Positions 7,947 to 14,899 of a stretch of 34,759 nucleotides of DNA are shown here, in pieces (positions within the stretch are counted from its first letter, which is position 1; the number at the start of each line of letters is the position of its first letter). The stretch is from Candidatus Micrarchaeota archaeon (GTDB lineage: Archaea > B1Sed10-29 > WALL01 > WAMD01): contig CAZZDL010000004.1 in assembly GCA_964652335.1 (NCBI GenBank), positions 1-34,759 on the forward strand. Reading direction: 5' to 3'. A model generated the notes under the pieces. That model saw nothing but the letters and a program-made list of their open reading frames with translations. It was not told the origin of the DNA and searched no databases. Made by a program: the position numbers and the translations under genes.

Positions 7947-8405
7947 ATGGATGGAGATATGAAAAGAATAGTATTTGGTCTTGGAATGATTTCTGGATTC
8001 ATTTTCTTGGTTGCATTCTTATCTTTGATGCTTCAATCAAGCCTTCCACCTGAGTTGTGCACCTGTGAACCATGGGCATGGCTACCATATCTTTTACCTT
8101 TATTGGCATCGTTGGGGATATTCGTTGGAGGAATTGTTTACTATTTAACAGCAACAGGAATGAAAGAAAGGGGAAAAGCGTTAGTAGCAGATGCTTTGCT
8201 TAACTGCTTGCCTGATGAAGAGGCAAAAGTAATACGCGTACTTCTAACAGGGCCAACCACTCAAGCAGAGATATCTAGAAAAACTGGATTAGGAAAAGTA
8301 AAAACACACAGAATAATAAAATCACTAAAGGCAAAAAACATAGTAGACGTCAAGCCGTTTGGCAAAACAAGGCTAATTACACTAATTCTAAAGACAGATT
8401 CATAA
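7947..8405 (+). CDS. Membrane-anchored winged-helix regulator (2 TM + C-terminal wHTH, COG2512-like)
   Basis: Two hydrophobic helices flanking LCTCEP, then LPDEEAKVIRVL...TQAEISRKTGLGKVKTHRIIKSL...GKTRLI. Confidence 0.8.
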   Translation: MDGDMKRIVFGLGMISGFIFLVAFLSLMLQSSLPPELCTCEPWAWLPYLLPLLASLGIFVGGIVYYLTATGMKERGKALVADALLNCLPDEEAKVIRVLLTGPTTQAEISRKTGLGKVKTHRIIKSLKAKNIVDVKPFGKTRLITLILKTDS

Positions 8406-8585
8406 TCCCGACCGAAGGCCTACTTTATGTAGTCCGCAGGGTTAGAAGGGGTGCAACCCCTCTAGCGGGCACGGGGGGATTTGAACAGAGGAACCTCCTA
8501 CGGTCGGCTCACGGGCCATCGCCCTACAGCCACCAGCGGGTTCCCTCTACCCTCCTGCAACCGACTCATAATCCCGACCGAAGGC
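8400..8585. repeat. 20-bp direct repeat A
   Basis: TCATAATCCCGACCGAAGGC identical at 8400-8419 and 8566-8585. Confidence 0.9.
8463..8486 (-). repeat. Duplicate of the tRNA-Arg 3' end (att-like)
   Basis: TAGCGGGCACGGGGGGATTTGAAC identical to 8640-8663; identity begins at the T-loop GTTCAAAT. Confidence 0.9.
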
Positions 8586-8642
8586 TAGCCTATCGCAGAG
8601 CGATAGGCTCCGTTCGCGGCGTAAACGGACGCGGCGGTTTAG

Positions 8643-8733
8643 CGGGCACGGGGGGATTTGAACCCCCGATCGCCGGCTTTCCCCCTTTCGGAGTTAGGAG
8701 GCCGGCGCCTTATCCTGGCTAGGCTACGTGCCC
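8643..8733 (-). tRNA. tRNA-Arg(CCT) with a 16-nt intron at position 37/38 (intron 8679-8694)
   Basis: Cloverleaf GGGCACG/CGTGCCC, D-arm GCCT/AGGC, anticodon stem CCGGC/GCCGG, anticodon CCT at 8696-8698, T-arm GGGGG-TTCAAAT-CCCCC; the intron can form a bulge-helix-bulge; CCA not encoded. Confidence 0.95.
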
Positions 8734-8760
8734 ACGGCTCTTAATTATTGCCCAAAGAGG

Positions 8761-8774
8761 ATTAAAAAACTTTT
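8761..8774 (-). promoter_or_regulatory. BRE/TATA promoter of tRNA-Arg
   Basis: AAAAG-TTTTTTAAT about 28 nt upstream of the tRNA 5' end. Confidence 0.55.
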
Positions 8775-8779
8775 GTCAG

Positions 8780-8895
8780 AAAAAGCAAGAGAGGGTGAGA
8801 GGGGAGGTACGGCCCCAAATTTACCCTCTTGGCCGGGTGAGCCTGGCCGTTTCCCCTCTTAGTTATTTTTCATCGGTCTTATCTTCCACACCTCC
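8780..8895. ncRNA. Candidate structured small RNA, copy 1
   Basis: GC-rich nested stems AGAGGGGA/TCCCCTCT and ACGGCC/GGCCGT around a core shared with 13291-13308; minus-strand BRE/TATA at 8917-8932; T-tracts possible on either strand. Confidence 0.45.
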
Positions 8896-8916
8896 AATTA
8901 GGGTAACTCAACGGTC

Positions 8917-8932
8917 ATATATATACCTTTCT
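8917..8932 (-). promoter_or_regulatory. BRE/TATA promoter with no sizeable ORF downstream
   Basis: AGAAAGG-TATATATAT on the minus strand; predicted start near 8895. Confidence 0.5.
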
Positions 8933-9012
8933 TAGGAAAATTCTAAAAATTTGTAAACCCATGTTAATAGACAATGGACAAATGTTCACTAGATAAATAG
9001 ACAATTGCCTAA

Positions 9013-12000
9013 CTATTCAATATATGCCTTCATATTAACTTCAACCACACTGCTTCCTATCTTCTTGTTCATAGAAACCCCAACTATCTGATCAGCCTCA
9101 TGGATAAGTGTGGCATTATGAGTAACCACAATAAACTGAGACTGCCCAACCCTACCTTTTATCATCTTAGCCAATCTTTCAGAATTTGCTCTATCCAATG
9201 GAGAATCTGCTTCATCCAGAATGTAGAATGGACTAGGCTTGTAGGACTGGATAGCAAACAAGAAGGTTAAAGCTACAACTGCTTTTTCTCCCCCACTTAG
9301 AGCCTCTATCCTCCTTACTGGCTTACCAGCTGGCCTAGCTTCAACTATGAGTCCGCCTTGGAATGGGTCTTCCTCATTCTCTAATTTTATGTCTGCAAAA
9401 CTACCCTCCTCTGGGTAGAATTCCTTGTACAAAGCCTGGAAGTGCTTCCTTATCTCGTTGTAGGTTTTCAAAAAGGCTTCTTTCTTCCTCTCTTCTATCC
9501 TCTCAATCAAATTAAGAACTGCTTCCTTCTCTGATTTTAACTTCTCAGCCTTCTCTTCAACGTCCTTCAATTCTTCTAATGCTTTCTCATATAACTCTAT
9601 AGCCTTCATGTTTACTGGCTCAAGCTTTGCCATTTTCTTCTTTAGCTCATCCAACTCCTTCTCAAGATCCTCAGTGGATTCTGACAACTCCTCAAACTTC
9701 TCTTTCCCTATTTCCTCCCATTCTGCCCGCAAATCAGAAAGCCTAGTCTCAAGCCTTGCCTTTTCAAGCTCTATCTGGTTGATCTCCTGTCTGGCGTTCT
9801 CCATCAACCTCTGAAGTGATCCTTTCTTCTCAGCTAGTTTGCCAAGCTCAGCTTGTAACCTCTCTCTCTTCTTCATTAAATCAGATAACTTCCCAGATAA
9901 CTCTTCCTCTGCCTTTATCATTTCCTGTAGCTTAGTCTCTAGATCAAATATCTTTTTCTTTGTATTCTTTAAGAATTCGTCCAATTCTGATTTTTCCTTT
10001 TCTAGTTCAGATTTTCTATTCATCAACCCAGTCAATCTAGCCTTTAACACAGATTCTAACTCAGACTTCATTGAGTTATACTGTATCTCTATCTCTGTTG
10101 CCTGTGTCTTCAAGGCATTTAGCTCCCTTTGCATCCTCTCCATTTTCATGGTCGCTTCTTTAGCTTCCCTTGATTTAAGCTTGGATTGTATTGTGGCCCT
10201 TCTTTCCTCAAGCTCCTCAAGTTCTTTTTTGATCTTGCTTGCCTTCTCTTCTGCCTCCTTTATCTTGGCCGATAACTCAGCTATCTCCTTCTCTACAGAT
10301 TCCCTTTCTCTCTCTATTGCAGATTTTCTAGTAAGATAATCAGAAAGCCTAGTTTCTATTTGTTCCTTAACCGCTTCCAACTGTTTTACTTCAACTTCAA
10401 CCTCAGACCTCTCTTTTCTCTTTTCTTCTATCTTCTCCCTTAGCTCTTCCATCCTCTTTAGTAGTTTATCCTGCTGCTTTGTCAGAGAATCAATATCCTT
10501 TTTCAGTTTATCTTTCTCAAGCATTTCTTTAAGTGTAACTCCTCCATGCCTGTACCCACCAGTTAATGCTCCAGATGCCTCTGCAAGATCTCCATCAAGC
10601 GTAGCCATTCTAACCTTTCCAAATCCTATCCGCTTAGCCACATCAACATTCTCAACAATTAAAGTATCTCCAAAAACATACTCAAATGCCTTCTTCAGTT
10701 TTTGATCAAATCTAACGAGGTTTATGGCAAATCCTAGCACTCCATCTTCCTTCTCTAAACGCTTAATATCTGGATCAATTGTTTGAGGTTTTATCTTGTT
10801 CAAAGGTATAAAGGTTGTCCTCCCTATCTTCTTGGATTTCAACCATTTAACTGCCTCAGTAGCAGAGACATCATCTTTAGTTATTATGTACTCAAGCCTG
10901 CTTCCTGCAGCCACTTGTATAGCTGTTGTATACTCGTCATCGTATTCACACAAATCTTTAACCCTACCTATTATCCCTCTTAGCTCTCCTCTCTTCGCTG
11001 CGTTTAAGACAGCCTCAGATGCCTCGTTACCAGTGATGGATCTTATGGTGGCTATCCTGGAGTATATGGAATGATACTTTTCCTTCAAAGAATCTATTTT
11101 AGAGTCCAATGCCTTGTACTCTTCGTTTAACTGCTTCTCCTTAGCGAACAATTCATCCAATTCATTCTGCTTCTGCAACAGTTTTCTTCTTAGAACAACA
11201 AGATCCTTCTCTATTGATTTAAGCCTGTCTTCAAGCTCCTTCTCTTCCTTGCTCGCCTCTGTCTTTGACAGGTTAGATAGCGTGAATTTCAAAACAGATA
11301 TTCTTTCTCTACTACCTGTAATCTCAGAAAGGACAGAGTAATACTCCTCTTGTTTTTTATGAATCATTTTTGAAAACTCTTCCAATTTCTCACTTATGTT
11401 AGTAACCAACAAATCTCTTTCTTTCATTGATGCCACAAAATTGTCAAGCTCTTCTTGTTTTTTCTTTATCCTATCTTTGTATGTATTGAGTTCCTTCTCA
11501 AGCTTCTCTATGGATTTTTCTCTCTTCTTTATTTCCCCTTCTAGCGATACCATCTCCTTTTCTAAAACCGAAATTTCAGTAATTATCTGATCCCTTCTCT
11601 TTGTTTTTTCTGAATAGCTTTCCTGGAGATACTTAATTTCAGTCCTCGTGGACTCTATCTGCTTAGCTATTGCCAATTGTTCCTTCTCTCCTCTAGCAAT
11701 TATCTCCTTGTTTATCCCATCTATCTCTCCTTGTAAGCTCCTTAGCTTGGCCTCTATCTCAGACCATTCACTAGACAAGCGTTCGTACTCACTCTTCTTC
11801 TCATTTAACAAAGATAGTTTCTCGTTCAAGGCATCCTCAAACTTCGTTAGCTCCCTCTTCAAAAGATTTGCCCTTATCAAATTAGCTCTCTCTTTGTATT
11901 TTTTGTATCTCAGAGCTTCGTTCCTCTCCTTTTTCAACTCTCCTATGTATCCCTTTCTCTCGTGGAGGAGTATCTCTGCTTCCCTTATCTTTTCCTCCAC

Positions 12001-12525
12001 CTTGGATAACTCCAGCATTGCCTTAGACTTCTTTTCTTCATATTCAGACACACCTGCAATTTCATCAATTACTTCTCTCCTCTGAGTAGGCCCCATCTTT
12101 ATGAATCCTTCCACATCTCCTTGCATTATTATGTTATATCCCTCCGGAGGTATTCCTAAAGACGCTATTGTTTCCTGTATCTCCATTCTAGTGGTTCTTT
12201 TACCATTAAGCCTGTAAATGCTGTTTCCTTGTTTATCTATCTCCCTTGTTATGGCTATTTTCTCTGTTCCTTTTCTAAGCTCAATGGTAACCTCGGCTGT
12301 GCCTGTCCTAGAGTTATGATGAACCAAATCCTTAACTCTCCCAGCTCTTAAGGCCTTCATCGACCCTTCTCCAAGGGTGAATAGAATTGCGTCAACTATA
12401 TTTGACTTACCAGAACCATTCGGCCCGACGACGCATACGAATCCATCTAAAAAAGGTATAACTGCCGTTCTAAAAGACTTAAAATCCCTCATCTTTATCT
12501 TTTCTATCTTTCCCATCTCTAGCAT
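9013..12525 (-). CDS. smc: Chromosome segregation protein SMC
   Basis: Walker A GPNGSGKSN, Q-loop IIMQGD, hinge GALTGG, signature LSGGEK, Walker B/D-loop ILDEADSPLD, long coiled coils; start may be 12516. Confidence 0.97.
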   Translation of the reverse strand: MLEMGKIEKIKMRDFKSFRTAVIPFLDGFVCVVGPNGSGKSNIVDAILFTLGEGSMKALRAGRVKDLVHHNSRTGTAEVTIELRKGTEKIAITREIDKQGNSIYRLNGKRTTRMEIQETIASLGIPPEGYNIIMQGDVEGFIKMGPTQRREVIDEIAGVSEYEEKKSKAMLELSKVEEKIREAEILLHERKGYIGELKKERNEALRYKKYKERANLIRANLLKRELTKFEDALNEKLSLLNEKKSEYERLSSEWSEIEAKLRSLQGEIDGINKEIIARGEKEQLAIAKQIESTRTEIKYLQESYSEKTKRRDQIITEISVLEKEMVSLEGEIKKREKSIEKLEKELNTYKDRIKKKQEELDNFVASMKERDLLVTNISEKLEEFSKMIHKKQEEYYSVLSEITGSRERISVLKFTLSNLSKTEASKEEKELEDRLKSIEKDLVVLRRKLLQKQNELDELFAKEKQLNEEYKALDSKIDSLKEKYHSIYSRIATIRSITGNEASEAVLNAAKRGELRGIIGRVKDLCEYDDEYTTAIQVAAGSRLEYIITKDDVSATEAVKWLKSKKIGRTTFIPLNKIKPQTIDPDIKRLEKEDGVLGFAINLVRFDQKLKKAFEYVFGDTLIVENVDVAKRIGFGKVRMATLDGDLAEASGALTGGYRHGGVTLKEMLEKDKLKKDIDSLTKQQDKLLKRMEELREKIEEKRKERSEVEVEVKQLEAVKEQIETRLSDYLTRKSAIERERESVEKEIAELSAKIKEAEEKASKIKKELEELEERRATIQSKLKSREAKEATMKMERMQRELNALKTQATEIEIQYNSMKSELESVLKARLTGLMNRKSELEKEKSELDEFLKNTKKKIFDLETKLQEMIKAEEELSGKLSDLMKKRERLQAELGKLAEKKGSLQRLMENARQEINQIELEKARLETRLSDLRAEWEEIGKEKFEELSESTEDLEKELDELKKKMAKLEPVNMKAIELYEKALEELKDVEEKAEKLKSEKEAVLNLIERIEERKKEAFLKTYNEIRKHFQALYKEFYPEEGSFADIKLENEEDPFQGGLIVEARPAGKPVRRIEALSGGEKAVVALTFLFAIQSYKPSPFYILDEADSPLDRANSERLAKMIKGRVGQSQFIVVTHNATLIHEADQIVGVSMNKKIGSSVVEVNMKAYIE

Positions 12526-12570
12526 TTACTCGTAATAAGAATAAAAAGATTGTTAGCTAGAAAATACTCA

Positions 12571-13263
12571 ATGAGAGTAAAGATAATATTCAACGGGAGC
12601 AAGGAGTGGACTAAAGGAGTAGCAGAAAGTATAGAGGATAAACTTGCTAAATCTGGATACGAAATAGTAGATAAAAACGCGGATGTCACAATAACCGTTG
12701 GCGGAGATGGAACTGTATTTTACAATCTAGACAAACTAGAAGGGAAGATACTTCCCATAGGCACTGAGAAAAGCGGGTTTTGTATACCCTTCACAAGAGC
12801 ATTGGAGAAACTTGAAGAACTAATGCACTCTAAACCGATACGGCTGATAGTTTTGGAAGCGTACACTGGCAATAAAATGATTGGGAAAGCTATAAATGAT
12901 ATAGTATTTCACACTGTTGATTATAGATTACATGAATTCTCATTCGTATCAAAGGGAAAATCGTATGTGTTTAAGGGCGATGGGCTAGTTTTGGCAACTC
13001 CTCTCGGATCTAGTTCGTACAATAGATCTGTCGGCGGCCCTGTTGTTGATAGGGATCTGAACGTTATGTCTGTATCAGCGATAGCACCGTATACTCAGTT
13101 CTATCCTAAAGTTGTAGCAGCAAATGAGGAATACACTGTCAAATCCGACTCAAAGATGGCTGTCATATTTGACGGATGGAAAGTAATTGAATTAGATAAA
13201 CCAGTGAGCGTAACTGCTAAAGAAAAAATAGATATGCTTATACCTAAAAGGTGCAAGTTCTAG
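12571..13263 (+). CDS. nadK: NAD(+) kinase family protein
   Basis: GGDGT, AIND, GDGLVLATPLGSSSYNRSVGGP motifs. Confidence 0.85.
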   Translation: MRVKIIFNGSKEWTKGVAESIEDKLAKSGYEIVDKNADVTITVGGDGTVFYNLDKLEGKILPIGTEKSGFCIPFTRALEKLEELMHSKPIRLIVLEAYTGNKMIGKAINDIVFHTVDYRLHEFSFVSKGKSYVFKGDGLVLATPLGSSSYNRSVGGPVVDRDLNVMSVSAIAPYTQFYPKVVAANEEYTVKSDSKMAVIFDGWKVIELDKPVSVTAKEKIDMLIPKRCKF

Positions 13264-13266
13264 CTA

Positions 13267-13340
13267 AAATAAAAAGGAACTAGGAGAGGTGCCAGGCTCA
13301 CCCGGCCAGAAGTAAGGGCACCGCTCCTAAGAAGCTAGTA
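13267..13340 (-). ncRNA. Candidate structured small RNA, copy 2
   Basis: CGAAAGG-TTTTTAAATA promoter at 13361-13377, stems TAGGAG/CTCCTA and GGTGCC/GGCACC around the shared core, downstream T-tract; lies between convergent genes. Confidence 0.55.
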
Positions 13341-13437
13341 TGTCTTTTTAAGACTATTTTTATTTAAAAACCTTTCGATTTTTACGGCATTCGCCTATCC
13401 ACTGGCTCTCCTAGACCCTAGCTCTTACTGGTTTACT

Positions 13438-14814
13438 TCACCTTTTTCGCTTTTTGGGCTTAGCTTTCCTCTTTGGTAAACCGACCTTCTTTAGAAACTC
13501 ATTTACAACGTCCTCTAGGTTTGGATGTCCCTTCTCGTCTAGCTCGTATCTAACTCTAACAACCGGCTTGTTTACCTTTAGTATTTTAGTTAGATCAATA
13601 GGTGTACCTGAAAGGACTAGATCGCATTTGGCTCTATTTATTGTCTTCTCAAGATCCCTTATTTGCTGCTTGGAATATCCCATTGCAGGCAAGACTTTAC
13701 CTAACTGTGGGAACTCTTCATATATCGCCTTCAAGGTTTTCGGCACATATGGTCTTGGGTCAATAACTTTACAATGATATTTCCTTGCAGCGATTATGCC
13801 CGCCCCGTACGCCATGTTTCCATGGGTTAGCGTAGGTCCATCCTCAACGACTAGAACTCTCTTTCCTTTCACAAATTCTGGATTCTCAACGATTATCTTT
13901 GAATTCGCATGAATTATTTTTGCCCTTGGATTTATCATCTTGATATTGTTCACAACTGTTTGTATGTCTTTCTTCTTAGCTGAATCTTCCTTGTTTATTA
14001 TAACATAATCTGCAAGCCTAGCATTTACTTCTCCTGGGTATGAGCCGATCTCATCGCCAGGTCTGTGCGGATCTGCCACGACGACCAGTGTATCAGGTAC
14101 GTAAAAGCTAACTTCATTATTACCTCCATCCCAAACAATTATATCTGCTTCCTTCTCAGCTCTCCTTATTATCTTCCCATAATCAACGCCTGAATAAACA
14201 ACTAAACCTCTCTCTATATATGGCTCATACTCTTCTCTCTCTTCTATCGTACATTTGTGCTTGTCAAGATCTGCATAACTGGCAAACCTCATTACCTCTT
14301 GTTCTCTTAAATCGCCATAAGGCATCGGTTCTCTAATTGCCACAACTCTAAATCCTCTGTCTTTTAGTATCTGAACTAGCTTTCTAGATGTCTGGCTCTT
14401 ACCACAACCGGTCCTAACAGCACAAACTGCTATAACTGGTTTTCTAGATTTCAGCATAGTATGGTTTGGACTAACTAACATGAAGTCTGCTCCTGCGGCT
14501 AATGCCCTAGATGCCTTATGCATAACTTCCGGATAAGGGAGATCAGAGTAAGCTAAAACAACTAGATCTACTTTCTTCTTTTTCACGTATTCTTCAAGCT
14601 TAGACTCTGGTATTGTAGGTATTCCTTTAGGATAAAGTCTTCCTGCAAGCTCTGGCGGATATCTTCTAAGCTTGGTGTTTGTGGTTCCTAAATTTTGCTC
14701 TTCAGCCATTGTAAATGCAACTACTTCGTAAGATGGGTTGTCTCTAAATATTGTGTTAAAAACATGGTAATCCATTCCCGCGGCTCCTATGATTATAACC
14801 TTCTTCCTCCCCAT
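13438..14814 (-). CDS. COG2403 P-loop protein, arginine synthetase (ArcE) / cyclic 2,3-diphosphoglycerate synthetase family
   Basis: IIGAAGxDxHxFN, YPPELAG, AVRTGCGKSQT, CTIEEREEYEP, WDGGNN, VEDGPTLTHG, LPAMGYS motifs. Confidence 0.8.
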   Translation of the reverse strand: MGRKKVIIIGAAGMDYHVFNTIFRDNPSYEVVAFTMAEEQNLGTTNTKLRRYPPELAGRLYPKGIPTIPESKLEEYVKKKKVDLVVLAYSDLPYPEVMHKASRALAAGADFMLVSPNHTMLKSRKPVIAVCAVRTGCGKSQTSRKLVQILKDRGFRVVAIREPMPYGDLREQEVMRFASYADLDKHKCTIEEREEYEPYIERGLVVYSGVDYGKIIRRAEKEADIIVWDGGNNEVSFYVPDTLVVVADPHRPGDEIGSYPGEVNARLADYVIINKEDSAKKKDIQTVVNNIKMINPRAKIIHANSKIIVENPEFVKGKRVLVVEDGPTLTHGNMAYGAGIIAARKYHCKVIDPRPYVPKTLKAIYEEFPQLGKVLPAMGYSKQQIRDLEKTINRAKCDLVLSGTPIDLTKILKVNKPVVRVRYELDEKGHPNLEDVVNEFLKKVGLPKRKAKPKKRKR

Positions 14815-14899
14815 ATACAACACCCATAGAATTAGAGATAACTACCTTTAAAAAGAATTTAAAAGAAGAGCTAAAAATAGAGAGTGATGGGTTAGGGGT

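Follow-up and report, generated by a model that had tools for sequence, protein, structure and literature searches.

The smc-nadK locus and its two hairpin elements

T1 and T2 are two G+C-rich hairpin elements that lie on either side of the smc and nadK genes on contig CAZZDL010000004.1 of a Candidatus Micrarchaeota archaeon (assembly GCA_964652335.1), and they may encode a pair of small RNAs (sRNAs) with complementary loops. The whole stretch of 34,759 nucleotides (nt) that was analysed, here termed the window, has a G+C content of about 40% compared with about 56–57% in the elements. T1 occupies positions 8792..8869, between an intron-containing tRNA-Arg(CCT) gene (8642-8733, minus strand) and the 3' end of smc (9013-12525, minus strand). 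T2 occupies positions 13273..13333, between nadK, which encodes NAD kinase (12550-13263, plus strand), and an open reading frame (ORF) of 461 aa (13438-14823, minus strand) that is without a Pfam family at E<=0.001 and separates T2 from the L12 gene. The genes for L12, L10, L1, L11, Spt5 and FtsZ follow beyond this ORF, all on the minus strand. Redox proteins, a helix-turn-helix (HTH) protein, SMC, NAD kinase, ribosomal proteins, Spt5 and FtsZ were recovered in a Pfam scan of the 14 ORFs between 5029 and 19092.

The two elements share an 18-mer, TGGCCGGGTGAGCCTGGC, which is found at 8830-8847 on the plus strand and as an exact match at 13291-13308 on the minus strand. These are its sole matches in the window even when up to three mismatches are allowed, a search for which 0.02 matches are expected by chance and two or more were found in none of 100 shuffles. 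The whole assembly of the window's genome (G000), a small DPANN-type archaeon whose 821,209 bases in 51 contigs are 96.8% complete, contains two copies of the 18-mer, both of them in the window, and no further site with up to three mismatches. Exact searches of window and assembly thereby confirm the intergenic, G+C-rich pair reported in a first-pass annotation that was made from the sequence alone. That annotation read both copies on the strand that carries the 18-mer as written, referred to below as the core strand (plus for T1 and minus for T2). The 18-mer of T1 holds most of a 15-nt apical motif that characterises the family described below and whose first base is 8829.

On the core strand, both window copies have a TTAC-pyrimidine lead-in and a TAGTT..TTTTT tail. 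Their stems differ in sequence yet pair exactly as had been written, with AGAGGGGA/TCCCCTCT and ACGGCC/GGCCGT in copy 1, and TAGGAG/CTCCTA and GGTGCC/GGCACC in copy 2. The predicted folding energies of the core strand are -38.9 kcal/mol (z -3.09) for copy 1 and -27.1 kcal/mol (z -2.44) for copy 2, those of the opposite strand -31.6 and -23.8 kcal/mol, respectively.

A structured family confined to one DPANN phylum

Neither element is matched by Rfam 15, in agreement with the earlier failure to recognise them. At gathering thresholds the tRNA-Arg gene is the only match, and at E<=10 the region 8600-13500 yields eight matches, none of which overlaps either element. A covariance model built from four sequences (R1) matches 19 of the 31 genomes of the phylum at E<=1, and a model rebuilt from 24 matches (R2) finds 20 of the 31 at E<=0.01, including 8 of the 11 high-quality genomes, with 0-3 R2 matches per genome. 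Within the window T1 is matched on the plus strand with 94.8 bits by R1 and 84.6 bits by R2, and T2 with 38.3 bits by R2 (E 3.1e-7). The eleven genomes without an R2 match include five of the six genomes of family f5 and a two-contig genome that is 91% complete; some of the eleven are far from complete. The exact 18-mer also occurs in two other genera of the family to which G000 belongs and a 14-mer core in 7 of the 31 genomes. A 20-nt form of the motif was scanned against one genome per species (185,579 species) and returned 41 stretches, of which nine archaeal ones fit the covariance model and all represent loci already known; the remaining stretches, bacterial by record title, show no model fit at the pattern site. 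The family is confined to one DPANN phylum, and the exact motif is present in no other lineage among the 185,579 species genomes. The family defined by R1 and R2 has no entry in Rfam 15, and literature searches, supplements left aside, found no description of such an RNA.

Covariation was computed on an alignment of 24 copies fitted to the covariance model, a procedure that itself favours covariation, and in this alignment 82.9% of the cells are paired compared with 67.6±1.2 in shuffles. Both sides change in 17 of the 24 pairs (12.4±1.6 in shuffles, with 1 of 500 reaching 17), and the double-changed cells number 97 as opposed to 32.6±5.1 in shuffles (0 of 500) and 14-22 when the partners are slid. 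Such changes affect eight of nine pairs in helix 1 and all eight in helix 2, that is 16 of 17 together. Two long helices are kept by compensatory change, as is generic for structured non-coding RNAs. The apical 15-mer UUGGCYGGGUGRGCC and the CCC-YN that precedes it are nearly invariant across the family. Within the small apical hairpin CCC/GGG alone is retained family-wide, and its four outer pairs are unpaired in 9-13 of the 24 aligned sequences. The helix covariation and the near-invariant 15-mer bear out the proposal that changed stems around an invariant loop reflect a selected structure, and the homologues recovered with R2 in 20 of the 31 genomes support the small-RNA family that the first-pass annotation had suggested. 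Its alternative fold GCCGGG-UGAG-CCUGGC and a TTAC/GTGA extension do exist in the window, but both are limited to the family of G000. CCC/GGG and GGC/GCC could together form a very small pseudoknot, which is beyond the reach of covariation since the bases concerned are invariant.

A number of known identities were considered and rejected. A miniature inverted-repeat transposable element (MITE) or a repetitive extragenic palindromic (REP) repeat does not agree with the low copy number across the 31 genomes and the syntenic sites, and the many copies expected of an ordinary MITE are replaced by two in G000. C/D-box and H/ACA RNAs are defined by a K-turn (tandem G·A pairs by a 3-nt bulge) together with C and D boxes or by a 3' ACA box. 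On inspection of the alignment, UGAUGA/CUGA-like boxes flank the stem in locus L045 and, in part, in L040 and L043, whereas the other loci lack them there; moreover, the purine that is required to be A varies between A and G, and no ANA box follows the stem. Inspection likewise gives no support for mimicry of a K-turn, a T-loop or an anticodon loop. The core resembles the signal recognition particle (SRP) RNA of genome G010 at 15 of 18 positions, at the 5' strand of the base of helix 8, though with another pairing topology, and this likeness is taken as chance. Comparison of T1 with the 6-kb locus of G010 that bears the 23S rRNA reveals no similarity or complementarity longer than 8-14 nt (E>=0.6), and T1 bears no likeness to the GTPase-centre hairpin. 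Rfam 15 and inspection thus uphold the earlier view that the elements are not tRNA, SRP RNA, RNase P RNA, C/D or H/ACA RNA. A replication origin was set aside as the GC skew merely tracks gene direction, and an ORF on the core strand of copy 1 is, by eye, frame-shifted in G010.

The SRP RNA, the 5S rRNA and an RNase P RNA-like match of G000 are all located on other contigs. The SRP RNA (L028:1501-1774, contig C11) is an Rfam match of 172 bits in which 40 model positions are skipped between helix 5 and helix 8, presumably the expected place of helix 6. The RNase P RNA candidate (G000:C9:30488-30738) scores 69.6 bits, under the Rfam gathering score of 84, and is possibly a reduced form.

Two paralogous types and their gene neighbourhood

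The family falls into two types. T1, the type of copy 1, has a longer two-part stem, while T2, the type of copy 2, is either shorter or contains other inserts, and almost always shows U for C opposite GGG. The single family seen in the first-pass annotation stands, but its two members are old paralogues rather than equivalent copies on one core strand. In most relatives T1 and T2 are arranged in tandem on the same DNA strand, and they are direct neighbours in 11 other genomes and in at least four further pairs on metagenome contigs. The end-to-start gap between them measures 203-261 nt in G002, G006, G007, G009 and G027, and 705-715 nt with an intervening ORF in G020 and G004; from motif to motif, G008, G023 and G024 have a spacing of 328-333 nt and G025 one of 747 nt.

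In the taxonomic order that contains G000, T2 lies upstream of smc at a distance of 70 nt in G011, 116 nt in G006 and ~128 nt in G002, and in G008 and G009 a short minus-strand ORF is found between the two. The T2 orthologue of G011 (L013) is placed 78 nt after the L12 gene. The linkage to smc is limited to this order, and the neighbours in other families are PRC-barrel-like, Lrp-like and HTH genes (translations judged by eye). The family of G000 has, after rearrangement, the gene order T2 - smc - T1, as a result of which the direct neighbours appear as an inverted repeat flanking smc. In G010 and G011, which represent two other genera of this family, T1 is also found beside the convergent smc 3' end and adjoins the same tRNA gene.

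This history bears on a further suggestion of the first-pass annotation, namely that the 18-bp inverted repeats are recombination sites that render the 4.4-kb smc-nadK segment invertible. The segment is indeed flanked by exact inverted repeats, and the layout in the family of G000 is an inversion relative to those relatives in which T1, T2 and smc follow one another in one direction. However, no recombinase family was found by Pfam in the 14 neighbouring ORFs, the orientation is constant across the related genera where it is visible (G010 and G011), and the repeats are the tips of conserved hairpin genes that are direct tandem neighbours in most relatives. Moreover, flipping an essential housekeeping gene together with its own promoter would switch nothing obvious. 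An invertible segment is thus very improbable, and an inverted repeat that flanks genes need not equate to a DNA switch.

Two further features of these neighbourhoods were noted. In G008 (L035:2403-3084) the SMC N-terminus is followed, after the P-loop GPNGSGK, by ~190 unrelated residues that by eye are intein-like and situated in the Walker A motif. In the window the region 8394-8663 beside the tRNA-Arg gene has 56-65% G+C and contains two direct repeats, one of 26 nt (8394-8419 and 8560-8585) and one of 24 nt (8463-8486 and 8640-8663) that duplicates the 3' end of tRNA-Arg, comprising T-loop and acceptor strand. Neither ARAGORN nor Rfam calls a second tRNA in this region, and the 24-nt repeat may be a fragment of a tRNA, a scar left by integration or one portion of a tRNA that is split or has several introns.

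Promoter-like boxes and transcribed strands

For T2 the signals agree with transcription from the core strand. In the window a proposed TATA box, TTTAAATA, is located at 13361..13368 on the minus strand, ~32 nt upstream of the stem, and a run of five T at 13271..13275 on the same strand, directly after the hairpin, is the proposed terminator. The predicted T2 RNA would be ~68 nt long here (~13338 to 13271). A TATA-like box of the TTTAAATA or TTTATATA type is present upstream on the core strand in 14 of the 15 T2 loci, often with a small 5' hairpin after it, compared with seven of 15 loci and scattered distances on the opposite strand. A run of at least four T follows 8-55 nt past the motif in 11 of the 15. 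Furthermore, U replaces C opposite GGG in 13 of 15 T2 loci but in only one of 18 T1 loci, CCC being intact in the other 17. This replacement gives a G·U pair on the core strand only and therefore favours the core-strand reading for T2.

T1 has its most regular signals on the opposite strand. A TATA-like box is found there 73-101 nt from the motif in all 18 T1 loci, mostly at 81-90 nt and usually with an A-rich stretch before it that resembles a transcription factor B recognition element (BRE). Some 21 nt past the box a pyrimidine is followed by GGAGGUG or a similar purine run and then by a small hairpin of variable sequence; Y-GGAGGT occupies the equivalent place in ten T1 loci and most others have shorter sequences of the GGAG/GGTG type (by inspection). 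The reverse-complement hairpin has a CACCC-like tail and then a T-run; in 13 of 18 loci at least four T in a row occur at a distance of 30-95 nt from the motif. The core strand of T1 has a TATA-like box in nine of 18 loci at scattered distances, and four T1 loci of family f4 have none within 170 nt upstream, where the DNA looks like the end of a coding region. In the family of G000 only the convergent smc 3' end lies beyond the T1 box, which makes the box hard to assign elsewhere. It is proposed from promoter position and wobble direction that T1 is probably transcribed from the strand opposite the core strand.

In the window the putative T1 signals are all on the minus strand and comprise a BRE/TATA box, GTATATATAT after AAGAAAG, at 8917..8926, GGAGGUG at 8889..8895, which is preceded by a pyrimidine and begins 21 nt past the TATA box, and a terminator-like run of five T at 8780..8784 after the reverse-complement hairpin. 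The predicted T1 RNA would here be ~116 nt long (8895 to ~8780) and consist of the GGAGGUG start, the small 5' hairpin, the long hairpin and the T-run end. The sequence GGAGGUG(A/U) at its predicted 5' end is the complement of the usual 16S rRNA 3' end. No usable ORF follows it, and CACCC is present in the T1 tail and loop, as is AGGUG/CACCU in the T2 stem.

A promoter and a perfect Shine-Dalgarno (SD)-like sequence might equally serve a small protein encoded on the opposite strand of T1, in a frame that reads ..AHPAK.. through the motif. Both variable motif positions are third codon positions in this frame, which stays open for at least 16 codons past the motif in all 19 loci then counted as T1. 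Yet ATG, GTG or TTG occurs between the upstream stop and the motif in only about six of these 19 loci (by reading), and in L046, L037 and L041 a stop precedes the motif by 0-5 codons. Past the nucleotide motif no residues are conserved, and the ORFs after the SD sequence are 2-10 codons long and unrelated, such that a coding function is hardly credible.

The sequence GGACAAAYGT and its inverse, ACGTTTGT, recur between the back-to-back promoter boxes of several genomes and are possibly an operator. Copies of this type are situated at 8976-8985 in the window and between T1 and T2 in L119, L054, L050 and L117; the sequence is not enriched in the window (4 matches, 2.76 expected).

Complementarity of the T1 and T2 loops

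If T1 is transcribed from the opposite strand and T2 from the core strand, their loops are complementary as RNA. The predicted T1 loop GGCYCACCCRGCCAA would be the Watson-Crick complement of the T2 loop UUGGCYGGGUGRGCC, with 18 bp in the window. T1 and T2 would then make a loop-to-loop (kissing) contact that might zip into a longer duplex, and one RNA of the pair would control or titrate the other. In G000 the sole extended complement of each loop is the other element. Sites complementary to the loops, with G·U and two mismatches allowed, are not in excess in this genome (16 versus 10 and 335 versus 357 in reversed-pattern controls).

Comparison of the two types within genomes is consistent with such a pairing. 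T1 and T2 agree in the Y and R states of the motif in 13 of the 14 genomes that have both types, with C/A in three, U/G in five and U/A in five. The exception is G006, in which both positions form wobble pairs when T1-opposite is paired with T2-core and C×A mismatches in the reverse orientation. Cognate duplexes have a mean predicted energy of -58.5 kcal/mol compared with -47.3 kcal/mol for non-cognate ones (0 of 10,000 permutations), and T1-opposite:T2-core is more stable than the reverse orientation in all but one of the 14 genomes. Across 18 pairs, 14 from genomes and four from metagenomes, 16 transitions of the shared apical block permit a G·U pair in the T1-opposite:T2-core orientation and five do not, alongside nine transversions; inside the 12-nt core all five transitions are compatible. 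The likeness extends beyond the motif in G019, whose two unlinked copies have different stems but resemble each other without gaps over 53 nt, with five differences and a stretch of ~33 identical nt, and matching blocks of 26-27 nt are found within G002, G020 and L197.

Several points weigh against this interpretation. The matching Y/R states, the stability of cognate duplexes and the matching flanks within genomes could also result from gene conversion or from a shared binding protein. The Y and R states have changed independently only a few times, in about 2-3 and 1-2 lineages, and the genomes are related, so that the counts overstate independence. The allowed transitions are mostly T1=C/T2=U (14 of 16), which is also expected from a U-tolerant T2 alone. 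As to the strand of T1, 15 of 25 copies, window copy 1 among them, have the better folding energy on the core strand, and RNAalifold energies are similar for both strands. The T1 helix wobbles, counted without the basal pairs in an alignment fitted to the core strand, amount to 15 G·U versus 10 A/C and do not favour the opposite strand; otherwise the helix wobbles are 74 versus 40 on unfitted arm alignments with flanks and 66 versus 17 over all pairs. T-run counts in fixed windows (7 core and 13 opposite for T1, 11 and 11 for T2) are weakly discriminating. The core strand of copy 1 in G000 also has an A/T-rich box ~30 nt upstream and five T after the stem, which makes core-strand transcription possible there, and the T1 of G023 has a U5 run within the opposite-strand RNA. 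Finally, the 23S rRNA gene was not found in the G000 assembly, although 5S rRNA and SRP RNA are present, which leaves rRNA as a possible target in this organism.

Part of this evidence would suit an arrangement in which both elements belong to one sRNA family transcribed from the same core strand and present the apical motif, possibly folded as the very small CCC/GGG and GGC/GCC pseudoknot, to a common protein or ligand, with no pairing between them. The common core-strand layout, with the TAGTT..TTTTT tail after both window copies, the better core-strand folds and a T1 linker 5' of the motif that by inspection is A-rich on the core strand are all in keeping with it, and a shared protein could shift the Y/R states jointly in both RNAs. 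This arrangement does not explain the opposite-strand TATA box and GGAGGUG at a fixed distance in 18 of 18 T1 loci, the matching of flanks within genomes or the 16:5 lean of the wobbles, and the four f4 loci that have no core-strand TATA-like box argue against it. On balance it is rather unlikely, albeit to be taken seriously.

The hairpins might instead be mainly transcription-end or 3'-untranslated-region structures, acting as bidirectional terminators or as stabilisers, or intergenic DNA palindromes, with the shared loop as a by-product of paralogy and gene conversion. A-runs border both window copies on one flank and T-runs on the opposite flank, copy 2 is situated between convergent genes, T2 follows the L12 gene in G011, and the wobble counts in the helices have no strand preference. 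Termination does not, however, need a 15-nt loop that is invariant across the phylum while the stems turn over, the elements keep promoter-like boxes of their own at fixed distances, and there are only 1-3 copies per genome where terminators would be many. This explanation is accordingly improbable.

The interpretation put forward here is that T1 and T2 may be a trans-encoded pair of hairpin sRNAs with kissing loops, for which the arguments from the sequences stand about evenly balanced. In its wider form, which falls a little short of even, the pair would be ancient and phylum-wide, with separately transcribed members whose complementary apical loops co-evolve in trans as a toxin-free chromosomal module. 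The SD-like GGAGGUGA of T1 may then gate the access of ribosomes or mRNAs to SD- or anti-SD-like sequences, and in the order of G000 the module may be linked to the expression of smc. RNA regulation in DPANN archaea is little known, and their reduced genomes keep few non-essential parts. If true, a module of two RNA genes that 20 of the phylum's 31 genomes have kept and whose partners covary in trans would be a rare conserved sRNA-sRNA pair and, as far as literature searches show, the first in archaea.

Comparison with known systems

With the families of Rfam 15 the elements share the character of a G+C-rich structured RNA in an A+T-rich archaeal genome, but no family matches them at E<=10. 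Exact inverted repeats are common to invertons and to this locus, whereas here no recombinase is found nearby and the repeat is part of a folded, covarying element.

RNA I/RNA II of ColE1 and CopA/CopT of R1 are kissing-loop antisense systems for plasmid control that are cis-encoded on overlapping DNA. The 8-nt loops of T1 and T2, closed by CCC/GGG, could likewise pair and then extend, but T1 and T2 are separate genes and have no replicon or target mRNA attached. In bacteria, sRNA sponges or anti-sRNAs are known, where one small RNA largely serves to bind another. T1 and T2 differ from these in being conserved together in at least 14 genomes.

The divergently encoded type I toxin-antitoxin loci are, together with the kissing-loop antisense RNAs, the nearest parallel. 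For zor-orz (zorO-orzO), a published account gives a trans complementarity of 18-19 nt, of which 15 nt of continuous pairing is enough, and it names tisB-istR-1 and shoB-ohsC alongside as loci of the same kind (PMC3919570). Such loci consist of two small neighbouring genes that run in opposite directions and have short trans complementarity; T1 and T2, with an ancestral back-to-back layout, would have a complementarity of 15-18 nt or more. The antisense stretch is 18 nt in the window and covaries across genomes, but only with strands inferred from promoter boxes. T1 and T2 differ from type I loci in that no conserved toxin ORF is present, none having been found in the T1 frames, in their archaeal host, in that both are long paralogous hairpins with the pairing site in their apical loops, and in their syntenic chromosomal sites throughout the phylum. 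By analogy, T1 and T2 may work like a type I toxin-antitoxin pair without being one.

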